The notes under the pieces: model-generated | Told to the model about the DNA's origin: nothing | What the model saw: only the letters and a program-made list of their open reading frames with translations | Databases searched by the model: none | Program-made: the position numbers and the translations under genes | Source: Escherichia phage LotteLoewe_Bas71 | Sequence record: PQ850615.1 | Length of the DNA: 42,712 bases | Direction: 5' to 3' (one strand) | In this document: positions 3,315 to 40,214 of the stretch, piece after piece | How the letters are laid out: every line of letters starts with the position of its first letter | Position numbering within the stretch: the stretch's first letter is position 1

Positions 3315-3336
3315 AGCCCCGAAAGGGGCTTTCTTA
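3315..3336 (+). terminator. intrinsic terminator after portal gene
   Basis: AGCCCC-GAAA-GGGGCT stem-loop followed by TTCTTAT. Confidence 0.5.
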
Positions 3337-26510: not shown

Positions 26511-26826
26511 TTCTAAATTCCTTATATTGTTGGGGTATGTGCTTACTATAATAGTCTGCTATTAGGGTGTCAATCTGTTTTATCGAACCAACGACAAAAA
26601 CATTTGCGCCACGTTTACGTATACGCTCGTGTTCCCGTAGCTGGTGCGGGTCTGGCTTAGTGTTTTCGTCTTTCTTCACCTCGACGAACCAGACGATGCC
26701 GCCGGGTAGAATTGCCAGCAGGTCAGGAGCGCCTGAACGTCCTTCGTAGGAAAGTTTACGAACGAGGCCACCAATGGCCTCGAATCGCTCTTTTGCGTAT
26801 TTCTGGATGCGGCCCTCTTTAGTCAT
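26494..26826 (-). CDS. VRR-NUC domain nuclease
   Basis: PD-(D/E)XK-like core (GAPDLLAIL ... VWFVEVKKDEN) typical of VRR-NUC. Confidence 0.55.
   Translation of the reverse strand: MTKEGRIQKYAKERFEAIGGLVRKLSYEGRSGAPDLLAILPGGIVWFVEVKKDENTKPDPHQLREHERIRKRGANVFVVGSIKQIDTLIADYYSKHIPQQYKEFRNETRI
26545..26573 (-). promoter_or_regulatory. leftward class B promoter (TTGACA-N17-TATAGT)
   Basis: Minus strand TTGACA (26568..26573) - N17 - TATAGT (26545..26550); lies inside the 3' end of the VRR-NUC ORF. Confidence 0.5.
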
Positions 26827-30255: not shown

Positions 30256-30284
30256 ACTATAATAGCTAACTATTCATGTGTCAA
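30256..30284 (-). promoter_or_regulatory. leftward class B promoter (TTGACA-N17-TATAGT) for SSB-like gene
   Basis: Minus strand TTGACA (30279..30284) - N17 - TATAGT (30256..30261); core AATAGCTAACTATTCA. Confidence 0.55.
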
Positions 30285-32555: not shown

Positions 32556-32584
32556 ACTATAATAGCGAACTATTCACATGTCAA
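32556..32584 (-). promoter_or_regulatory. leftward class B promoter (TTGACA-N17-TATAGT) for acidic early gene
   Basis: Minus strand TTGACA (32579..32584) - N17 - TATAGT (32556..32561); core AATAGCGAACTATTCA. Confidence 0.6.
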
Positions 32585-35865: not shown

Positions 35866-35895
35866 TTGAAAGTTCTTGACACATGTTTGTATAAT
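35866..35895 (+). promoter_or_regulatory. rightward promoter in central control region (TTGAAA-N18-TATAAT)
   Basis: -35 TTGAAA 35866..35871, 18-nt spacer, consensus -10 TATAAT 35890..35895; divergent from promoter 35800..35828. Confidence 0.5.
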
Positions 35896-36241: not shown

Positions 36242-36442
36242 GTGAGGGTTATGTTTAAGAAGGGTCAGTTGGTTAAAACTAAACGCGGAGGGCAATATGT
36301 ATTAGTGTTGCAGGACGAGAGCGAGTATGACGAGGATAATCTGGTTGACGTATGGGGTCTGGTAAGAAAGAAAACTGGGTTCGCCTCCCGCGATAATTTA
36401 GAACTCATCGGCAACAATTTTAAATTCAAAGGGGCGAAGTGA
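36242..36442 (+). CDS. hypothetical early protein (66 aa)
   Basis: First ORF after promoter 36188..36216 with conserved AACGAGA...GGAG leader. Confidence 0.45.
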   Translation: MRVMFKKGQLVKTKRGGQYVLVLQDESEYDEDNLVDVWGLVRKKTGFASRDNLELIGNNFKFKGAK

Positions 36443-39087: not shown

Positions 39088-39281
39088 TGGTACAGAGATA
39101 TGAGGTAAAAGCGTGGGGCCTGCCAGAGCCTGAGATGGCTGAGTACGCATACGGCGATTATGTAGAGTACGACGCTTATCTGAAACTTGAAGCAAAGTTA
39201 CGTGAATTCGCTAAGCAGGTGCTAGATAGCCCGTGTGACTGGAAGACAAATGAATTAGCGCGCGAGATTCTTGGAATATGA
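39087..39281 (+). CDS. hypothetical protein, paralog B (64 aa)
   Basis: Starts MVQRYEVK; shares N-terminus and YxxLEAxL core with paralog A; TAATG overlap. Confidence 0.45.
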   Translation: MVQRYEVKAWGLPEPEMAEYAYGDYVEYDAYLKLEAKLREFAKQVLDSPCDWKTNELAREILGI

Positions 39282-39571
39282 GCCTTGCAACTGACATCCT
39301 GAAACGAAGCGGCCTTGCGCCGCTGTCACCGAGAGCGAAGACACGAATATACAAGCGCCGCCGTAATGCGCTGTACCCTGAGATTCAGGCCAGACGCAAA
39401 GCAGTCCGCGCCTGCGGATTCCAGAACGGAAAGGCCGTGAATCTAGGAGAGTTTAAAACACAGGAACGCGCGGCAATCGCTAATCGGTTATTTAATTACT
39501 GGAAATCGCTCGGATACGATGATATTCCATCGAAACCGCAGAGACGACAATACATCTGGCGTCATAAATAA
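39278..39571 (+). CDS. hypothetical basic protein (97 aa)
   Basis: ATGA-coupled ORF; arginine/lysine-rich. Confidence 0.4.
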   Translation: MSLATDILKRSGLAPLSPRAKTRIYKRRRNALYPEIQARRKAVRACGFQNGKAVNLGEFKTQERAAIANRLFNYWKSLGYDDIPSKPQRRQYIWRHK

Positions 39572-39601
39572 ACCGTTATTAAGATAATTCCTAACCGTGC
39601 T

Positions 39602-39641
39602 ATCCTCCAGTTACTGCATACTTAATACGCACCTGGAGGAT
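39602..39641 (+). promoter_or_regulatory. stem-loop sequestering the holin Shine-Dalgarno
   Basis: ATCCTCCAG (39602..39610) pairs with CTGGAGGAT (39633..39641), which contains the GGAGGA SD for the TTG start at 39647. Confidence 0.45.
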
Positions 39642-39646
39642 TCATC

Positions 39647-39955
39647 TTGGATAAATTTACTGAAACAGTGACAGGCTGGCTTCTCGCTGCCGCACTAGCC
39701 GGAGGGGTAATCGGACTAAGGCAACATAAGTCCGCTATTTCCGGCCCTATCGACGGCTTCTGCTTTATTGCAACTGGCTTCACTTGCGCCGTATTTGGCG
39801 CACCTCTCGCAGCTCAATGGTTTGGAATCACGGGCGACCGTGAAATCGCAGGCCTGGGCTTCATTATCGCTATTCTCTGGATGCCTATCTATTCCCGTCT
39901 GTCCGGTATCGTCGCCGGAGAATACATCGCACGTCGAGGAGGCCCGGATGAATGA
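39647..39955 (+). CDS. holin
   Basis: 102 aa with predicted TM helices and charged C-terminus; TTG start with GGAGGA SD; adjacent to the endolysin. Confidence 0.55.
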   Translation: MDKFTETVTGWLLAAALAGGVIGLRQHKSAISGPIDGFCFIATGFTCAVFGAPLAAQWFGITGDREIAGLGFIIAILWMPIYSRLSGIVAGEYIARRGGPDE

Positions 39956-40214
39956 GTTATTCTGGTTCTGCGGTATGCTGGCAATCGGAGGCACATCGCT
40001 GTTTAATGTGTATCATCCCAGCGTTGACGACGGGCTATTTGGCCGGGTGCTCTATATCCTGACTGCTATTGTCTGCGCCGCAGGATGTATCCACCTGTTA
40101 CAGGGCAGCATGTCTCCGACGCTGCCTGAGACATTAATCACATTAGTTGCGCTGCGCCAGATTCGTCAGGCGTGGCTGTCATACGGAGGACATAAGCGTG
40201 TCTCGAAACATTAG
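39948..40214 (+). CDS. second small membrane protein of lysis cassette (holin/antiholin candidate)
   Basis: 88 aa with two hydrophobic segments; ATG 39948 with GAGGAGG SD; overlaps holin and endolysin. Confidence 0.45.
   Translation: MNELFWFCGMLAIGGTSLFNVYHPSVDDGLFGRVLYILTAIVCAAGCIHLLQGSMSPTLPETLITLVALRQIRQAWLSYGGHKRVSKH

Follow-up and report, generated by a model that had tools for sequence, protein, structure and literature searches.

What is a hairpin that hides the ribosome binding site of a holin gene doing at the entrance to a phage lysis cassette? The question is raised by the genome of Escherichia phage LotteLoewe_Bas71 (PQ850615.1), the 42,712 nt of which we refer to as the window. 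Immediately upstream of the first lysis gene, which encodes a putative holin, two 9 nt arms can pair so that the Shine-Dalgarno (SD) sequence of the gene is caught in the stem, and the gene starts with the codon TTG. The holin level sets the moment of lysis and hence burst size and fitness, and a weak start codon or a hidden SD is a known phage means of keeping a lethal membrane protein low or silent. An original prediction, made on the letters of this sequence, took the occluded SD and the weak start together as a throttle on holin translation. Here we favour a different use of the same hairpin, namely an insulator of the type known from gene e of phage T4: the hairpin would silence RNA that reads through from upstream, and a promoter belonging to the cassette would yield RNA free of the anti-SD. 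We give this reading a probability of roughly 45%.

The hairpin and the TTG start

The two arms are exact reverse complements of each other, as the original prediction had it, and the 3' arm does contain the SD GGAGGA, which ends six nt before the TTG at 39647-39649. The claim that the holin initiates at this codon was also confirmed. An in-frame TAA at 39623 excludes a start further upstream; the holin homologues open with M/V-D-(D)-K at the corresponding codon of the alignment, be it ATG, GTG or TTG, which identifies TTG 39647 as the true start; the TTG is conserved among relatives, as detailed below; and the GenBank annotators choose the same position. The protein begins M(TTG)-D-K-F-T-E-T-V. 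TTG is used by three of the 73 mapped starts of the genome, the other two belonging to tiny and doubtful open reading frames (ORFs). A search for a dual start returned GTG 39668 as the only further in-frame candidate, with no SD before it, and no Met/Lys dual-start motif.

Simply as a 9-bp inverted repeat, the element is not rarer than expected by chance. Nine perfect repeats of this length with a loop of 3-40 nt occur in the window and 7.0 +/- 3.5 in its dinucleotide shuffles, and the 109 nt context folds with a z of only -0.99; both figures would suit a chance repeat without function. On the other hand, fold strength, SD occlusion and the comparative data presented below put the hairpin beyond chance. 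The 44 nt hairpin has a folding energy of -14.7 kcal/mol (z = -4.06), which was reached by one of 200 shuffles. For all 73 mapped genes we computed an opening cost, the energy for unpairing positions -15 to -4, and the 12.05 kcal/mol of the holin SD is the third highest (genome mean 5.0, standard deviation 2.6). The SD so occluded is a strong one, the SD-anti-SD duplex having an energy of -9.3 kcal/mol compared with a median of -6.2 kcal/mol. That a strong SD is nevertheless occluded speaks for a constant translational throttle, in which there is no internal promoter and the full hairpin and the TTG, present on every holin mRNA, cut initiation by a fixed factor, slow the build-up of holin and so set the lysis time.

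A scan of 39200-40100 against Rfam at E <= 10 gave only a chance snoRNA match at 12.5 bits. Further copies of the leader (TATTAAGATAATTCCTAACC, up to three mismatches) were sought in the window and none were found; being single copy, the leader is not a repeated phage promoter.

Conservation in Kagunavirus and hairpins in further lineages

The window is a complete genome of Kagunavirus (Guernseyvirinae), with Escherichia phage vB-Eco-KMB35 as its closest relative, and the comparison within the genus covers 40 related IMG/VR loci. Nowhere in the lysis region is variation lower than in 39587-39666, with a nucleotide diversity (pi) of 0.005-0.06, against 0.35 at third and 0.03 at second codon positions of the holin. 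The 3' arm shows no variation at all among these loci. In the 41 Kagunavirus-type leaders that precede an intact holin the stem, SD and TTG are invariant apart from a single substitution in the 5' arm, A39609G (locus L039), which produces a G·U pair and keeps the stem. The TTG is found in all 42 Kagunavirus-type leaders and also in L079-L081, and the leader is identical even before holins with identities down to 78%. Of the remaining changes, T39611G (L025) adds a tenth base pair, and three changes in phage LSPA1 (L029) lengthen the stem to 13 bp.

The sole leader with a broken terminal pair, T39641C, is that of Salmonella phage VT223 (L042), where the holin downstream is a 48-aa remnant. Loss of the TG of the promoter-like motif described below (T39598C) is likewise confined to this leader. 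VT223 (L042, 1501-1770) is a recombinant Jerseyvirus in which a Kagunavirus-type leader and the first ~60 nt of a Kagunavirus holin result in the truncated ORF, and a Jerseyvirus-type terminator hairpin and an intact, GTG-initiated holin follow the orphan leader.

Within the leader we also noted that TATTAAG (39577-39583) and CTTAATA in the loop (39621-39627) form a 7-bp inverted repeat. On read-through RNA this repeat may form a pseudoknot with the main stem, or it may be due to chance. At 39582/39622 the window has A-T, many relatives have G·T and L029 has G-C; in L025, however, both sides of 39581/39623 are altered to give a mismatch.

The same holin family, recognised by the N-terminus MDK or MDDK, occurs in five further lineages, which are Dhillonvirus, Jerseyvirus types A and B, KW1E and L079, the last a Kaguna-like clade of 67% identity from metagenomes. 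A large protein search gave close relatives and one lineage of 67% identity only. In all five further lineages a hairpin lies directly before the holin start codon, with an anti-SD-like 5' arm (GTCCC, TCTCC, TCCCC, TCCTCT), and throughout the six lineages the 3' arm holds the only SD-like element, with inner stem sequences that differ. The costs of opening the SD are 13-17.5 kcal/mol in Jerseyvirus A, 11.6-14.8 in Jerseyvirus B, 13-17 in Dhillonvirus, 12.3 in KW1E and 7.1 in L079, whose 5' arm ATCCTCTGG gives two G·U pairs and whose 9 nt loop is unrelated to that of Kagunavirus. The design is not universal in the holin protein family, as a distant homologue, that of Pectobacterium phage Wc4-1 (Ounavirinae), lacks the SD hairpin and has an opening cost of 2.4 kcal/mol.

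When the six lineages were aligned by structure, with the SD core as anchor, 86% of the cells were paired against 66% in shuffles (0 of 500 reached 86%), and 9 of the 12 stem pairs had changed on both sides, counts which lean towards structure because the alignment was fitted to each sequence's own fold. Sliding the registers by 1-3 columns left just 28-50% paired. MAFFT followed by RNAalifold on the natural leaders was unusable, the 3' arms of the lineages being out of register and the output a spurious 4-bp structure.

On these comparisons, selection acts on the RNA to maintain the hairpin. Chance would leave unexplained a stem that is invariant in 41 leaders while the adjacent third codon positions vary, variants that preserve pairing, and hairpins with compensatory changes at the same position in five other lineages; the comparative data effectively refute it. 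Another possibility is that the arms act as DNA, as operator half-sites for a dimeric phage or host regulator straddling a lysis promoter. The inverted repeat does flank the predicted transcription start, and operator arms would co-vary between lineages too. However, where the stem is not paired in Watson-Crick fashion the + strand mostly has G·T, with four such positions in the 12-bp extended stem of L079 and others in L039, both Jerseyvirus types and Dhillonvirus. Such pairs are tolerated in RNA and are plain mismatches in DNA, which points to a helix in RNA rather than a palindrome in DNA. In four lineages the stem is followed by a T-tract, and the range of the loop from 6 to 22 nt would shift the phasing of the half-sites. 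Hence we find a DNA palindrome very improbable.

The lineages differ in what they combine with the hairpin. Kagunavirus, represented by the window, has GGAGGA and TTG without a T-run, Jerseyvirus type A has GGAGA and GTG with a T-run, type B has GGAG and ATG without one, and Dhillonvirus has GGGAC and ATG with one. As relatives pair the same kind of hairpin with GTG or ATG, the hairpin is family-wide and the weak start codon is not. For a throttle, these different mixtures of hairpin, SD and start codon resemble tuning to a low output, and the conserved TTG and the selection on the stem would also fit.

The T-runs raise the possibility of a residual or leaky terminator, which would end or attenuate the upstream operon, with the SD in the 3' arm owing to genome compactness and any effect on translation incidental. 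In Dhillonvirus, Jerseyvirus A and KW1E the loop of the hairpin is short and 5-8 consecutive T extend up to the start codon, the tail in L079 is rich in T, and the Dhillonvirus hairpin was labelled as a terminator by an independent annotator, so that in four of the five further lineages the hairpin looks like an intrinsic terminator. A like layout is present in the window at the minor capsid gene (terminator 3315-3330, ATG 3341). The terminators of Dhillonvirus, Jerseyvirus and KW1E stand at the same position before a homologous holin as the window hairpin and have an anti-SD-like 5' arm (TCTCC, GTCCC or TCCCC) and an SD-like 3' arm. Unlike them, the window hairpin has a 22 nt loop, an interrupted T-tract (tail TTCATCTT), a stronger SD and the TTG; no terminator was called at this site, and with such a loop and tail it does not fit the form of an intrinsic terminator (3-8 nt loop, then a U-tract). 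All these hairpins are probably the same ancestral element, judging from position and arms. As an account of the window, termination leaves unexplained why the 9-bp stem is invariant at a site that is not a terminator, and why the hairpin persists in Jerseyvirus B, which has no T-tract, with GGAG as part of the 3' arm. The SD-like element, found in the 3' arm and nowhere else in all six lineages, is unlikely to be there by accident. We therefore consider this explanation improbable. A 'terminator' annotated in phage fBC-Eco01 was considered as the same hairpin and rejected, as it lies within the holin ORF (+84 to +127).

A promoter-like motif in the 5' arm and a proposed insulator model

The 5' arm overlaps a sequence resembling an extended -10 promoter element, TGcTATCCT, which is preceded by a -35-like hexamer (coordinates in Table 1). 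In phages whose upstream gene is a different one, the BLAST match sets in at 39577, two nt ahead of this hexamer. Kagunavirus, L079, Dhillonvirus and the two Jerseyvirus types have all preserved the pattern TGnTAnnnT amid scrambled flanking columns, the Dhillonvirus form being TGaTATAGT and the Jerseyvirus form TG(t/c/a)TAA(T/C)CT; KW1E has a -10-like TACTAT without the TG. Between the window and L079 the only surviving blocks are TATTAAGAT, which holds TTAAGA, TGnTATCCTC, and the 3' arm with SD and start, the spacer and the loop having been replaced; the first block is retained as TATTA(A/G)GAT and the spacer next to it is not. Three common polymorphisms of Kagunavirus fall on position 4 of the -35 (39582), in the spacer and on the n of TGn, and in Kagunavirus-type leaders with an intact holin this n is polymorphic and the TG and TA are invariant. 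With a sigma-70 position weight matrix, self-made and rough, with approximate frequencies and TG bonus and applied after the motif had been seen, the site ranks 19 of 85,352 positions in the window genome, first in the Dhillonvirus locus and second to third in the Jerseyvirus loci.

A start placed seven nt after the hexamer lies, for each lineage, within the loop or at the distal end of the 5' arm, in the window at about A39613. In silico, beginning the RNA at the predicted starts makes the SD easier to open: the cost in the window is 7.3 instead of 12.1 kcal/mol, and the tested relatives go from 12-17 down to 2-5.5 kcal/mol. From its conservation and its matrix rank the motif is predicted to be a promoter, with a start near 39613. 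The galP1 promoter of E. coli is an extended -10 promoter, TGnTATGGT. Like galP1, the window motif places a TG one base before the -10 hexamer, in which T1, A2 and T6 are retained, and has a weak -35; it is assigned to the class by conservation and the rough matrix, and its activity is a prediction.

As another -10 we tried GATAAT at 39583-39588 and rejected it, as it would place the -35 in the upstream gene, which is not conserved, and as 963 positions have an equal or higher score. The sequence GATAA(A/T)TCC(T/G)AA is found upstream of the hairpin in the window (39583-39595) and in both Jerseyvirus types (L049 and L058, ~70-80 nt before the holin), at varying distances.

In T4, the early transcripts of gene e arise by read-through and have their translation start region covered by an inhibitory hairpin; translatable RNA comes from late promoters, which lie within the 5' strand of this hairpin (PMC3014915). 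Genes e, soc, 49 and I-TevI share this design, in which read-in transcripts have the SD and/or the start codon hidden. The window resembles T4 e in where the motif lies, in a predicted start that falls within the loop and in the lower cost of opening the SD on RNA from that start, and it is this match in leader layout that makes us favour the insulator. The differences are that the motif is of the sigma-70 extended -10 type and not a T4 gp55 late promoter (TATAAATA), that the guarded gene is a holin and not an endolysin, and that the hairpins of four related lineages are also terminator-like. Whether the element belongs to the T4 e type hinges on the predicted promoter.

According to the insulator model, the hairpin would shield the lysis genes from transcription that enters from upstream genes on the same strand. 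Such read-through into the cassette is plausible, given the upstream genes on this strand, a promoter at 35866-35895 and no terminator-like site found between 37287 and 39602. On the read-through RNA the full hairpin would form and keep the 30S subunit off the holin SD, and in relatives with a T-tract it would additionally end the transcript. The cassette's own promoter, a weak one of sigma-70 extended -10 type (TTAAGA-16-TGc-TATCCT) overlapping the 5' arm, would give RNA that begins at about 39613 in the loop, lacks the anti-SD and has a far more accessible SD, and on these competent transcripts the TTG would then hold holin synthesis low. If the promoter is real, the stem silences read-through RNA only and is an insulator rather than a rheostat. 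With somewhat less confidence, and tentatively, we further suggest that at least these six lineages of enterobacterial siphoviruses share one element before the lysis cassette, a sigma-70 extended -10 promoter nested in the 5' arm of a hairpin that is both terminator and anti-SD, which would have long been kept, would exclude transcription and translation coming from upstream and would launch hairpin-free lysis transcripts. The main Kagunavirus clade would in that case be derived, with termination lost and the loss offset by the strong SD and the TTG.

Several observations weigh against the insulator. A constitutive sigma-70 promoter alone would give no temporal control. The hexamer TATCCT agrees with the -10 consensus at only 4 of 6 positions, the -35-like hexamer with its own consensus at 3-4 of 6, a standard consensus promoter scan of the window did not list the 39598 site, and the promoter predictions by the authors of fBC-Eco01 include none at the equivalent site. 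RNA from the predicted start, at 7.3 kcal/mol, is still more occluded than the genome mean of 5.0. The loop is nearly invariant in the main Kagunavirus clade (pi 0.023), which neither the insulator nor any other model offered here explains. In the literature on these genera we found no transcription start map and no study of lysis regulation, and the one RNA-seq paper on a Kagunavirus, which is at gene level, places the lysozyme in the 'middle' class. To these should be added the roughness of our matrix and the lean of the pair counts mentioned above.

The lack of a promoter call at the leader in the consensus scans is at the same time a point in favour of the throttle, which is the main rival to the insulator. 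Further support comes from phage lambda, where changes in the translation start region of S shift the lysis time (bioRxiv 10.1101/2025.05.14.654169). The throttle does not account for the conservation of 39577-39601, for TGnTAnnnT across lineages or for the -35/-10 footprint that remains against L079, and where a strong terminator ends 0-5 nt before the start codon the cassette would have to rely on leakage alone. On balance it seems to us doubtful, though less so than the other rivals. What stands of the original prediction is that the SD is unusually occluded, the stem selected and the TTG conserved, so that a negative effect on holin translation is the natural reading. The part concerning the weak start holds for the Kaguna-like clades only, and the terminator-like hairpins of the sister lineages and the extended -10-like motif had been overlooked.

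Hairpins that sequester the SD of a lysis gene are already known from lambda S (sdi) and T4 e. In lambda, the sdi stem-loop at nt -21 to -7 governs ribosome access, and mutations in this region alter the lysis time (bioRxiv 10.1101/2025.05.14.654169). The window element is similar in being an upstream stem-loop over an SD in a holin leader. The lambda stem, however, splits initiation between two AUGs, for the antiholin S107 and the holin S105, whereas the window has a single TTG, and without a dual start the element is not of the lambda S type. The two holins are also unrelated, and in the window an antiholin function may sit in a separate gene. No description of the present element was found in the literature on these genera.

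The conserved 70 nt leader offers a handle for testing and engineering lysis timing in a virulent siphovirus that lacks a Q/pR' system of the lambda kind, and it can be mutated separately in the 5' arm, at the TG motif or at the TTG. Many phages of Kagunavirus, Jerseyvirus and Dhillonvirus have been isolated for use in therapy and biocontrol. Should the nested promoter be real, a terminator abutting a start codon need not imply dependence on read-through, which may serve as a rule for annotation, and the logic of T4 gene e would have been found again in phages using the host RNA polymerase, applied to a holin.

The lysis cassette and its surroundings

The hairpin sits in a 75 nt gap that precedes the first lysis gene. 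The genes on the + strand form a series which starts at 36251 beside a divergent promoter region and runs through small genes into the lysis cassette and on to the terminase and structural genes. The features of the leader and the cassette are collected in Table 1.

Table 1. Coordinates of the leader elements and lysis genes in the window
Feature	Position	Strand	Remarks
Left edge of the conserved leader	39577..39584	+	-35-like TTAAGA 39579-39584; TTAGGA in about half of relatives
Extended -10-like motif TGcTATCCT	39598..39606	+	TG 39598-39599, hexamer 39601-39606; overlaps first five nt of 5' arm
5' arm, anti-SD ATCCTCCAG	39602..39610	+	Exact reverse complement of 39633-39641
Loop	39611..39632	+	22 nt; inner 3-bp helix 39615-39617 with 39629-39631; predicted transcription start inside
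3' arm CTGGAGGAT	39633..39641	+	Contains SD GGAGGA 39635-39640
First holin-like gene	39647..39955	+	102 aa, TTG start; PHROG 2359 'holin', E = 1e-29
Second holin-like gene	39948..40214	+	88 aa, ATG start, which overlaps the stop of the first gene (ATGAATGA)
Endolysin (phage lysozyme)	40198..40686	+	GTG start, SD GGAGGA; Pfam PF00959, E = 8e-27

The first holin-like protein is small, has hydrophobic segments and a PHROG holin match, and is encoded in the same cassette as an endolysin, as expected for the holin family. We regard it as a putative holin, and its role as holin rather than antiholin as provisional. The overlaps at 39948-39955 and 40198-40214 chain the three lysis genes, the GTG of the endolysin lying 17 nt before the end of the second holin-like gene. 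Because of these overlaps, control at the first start could spread down the cassette by translational coupling, and the second holin-like gene could be coupled to the first in this way. The endolysin SD is identical to that of the first holin. In L079/L080 (601-1413) there is no second holin-like gene, and the endolysin follows directly after the first holin with the same GGAGGACATAAGCGTG start region.

Adjoining the cassette upstream is a gene at 39278-39571 for a basic protein of 97 aa (PHROG 9632), for which no Pfam match was found even at E <= 10. An AP2-like identity suggested by its appearance was discarded, as Pfam lends it no support at that threshold. In many relatives a gene for an HslV-family peptidase replaces it, with the swap point at 39576/39577.

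On the - strand, the block of replication genes has three near-identical consensus promoters, TTGACA-17-TATAGT, at 26545-26573, 30256-30284 and 32556-32584. The strongest promoter on the + strand is TTGAAA-18-TATAAT at 35866-35895, upstream of the rightward gene series. These four are probably the early promoters.

Layouts with an SD inside a terminator recur in the window phage. At the minor capsid gene the SD GGGG lies within the terminator-like hairpin, which is formed by AGCCCCGAAAGGGGCT followed by TTCTTATAGT, and this SD is the second most occluded in the genome with an opening cost of 12.3 kcal/mol.

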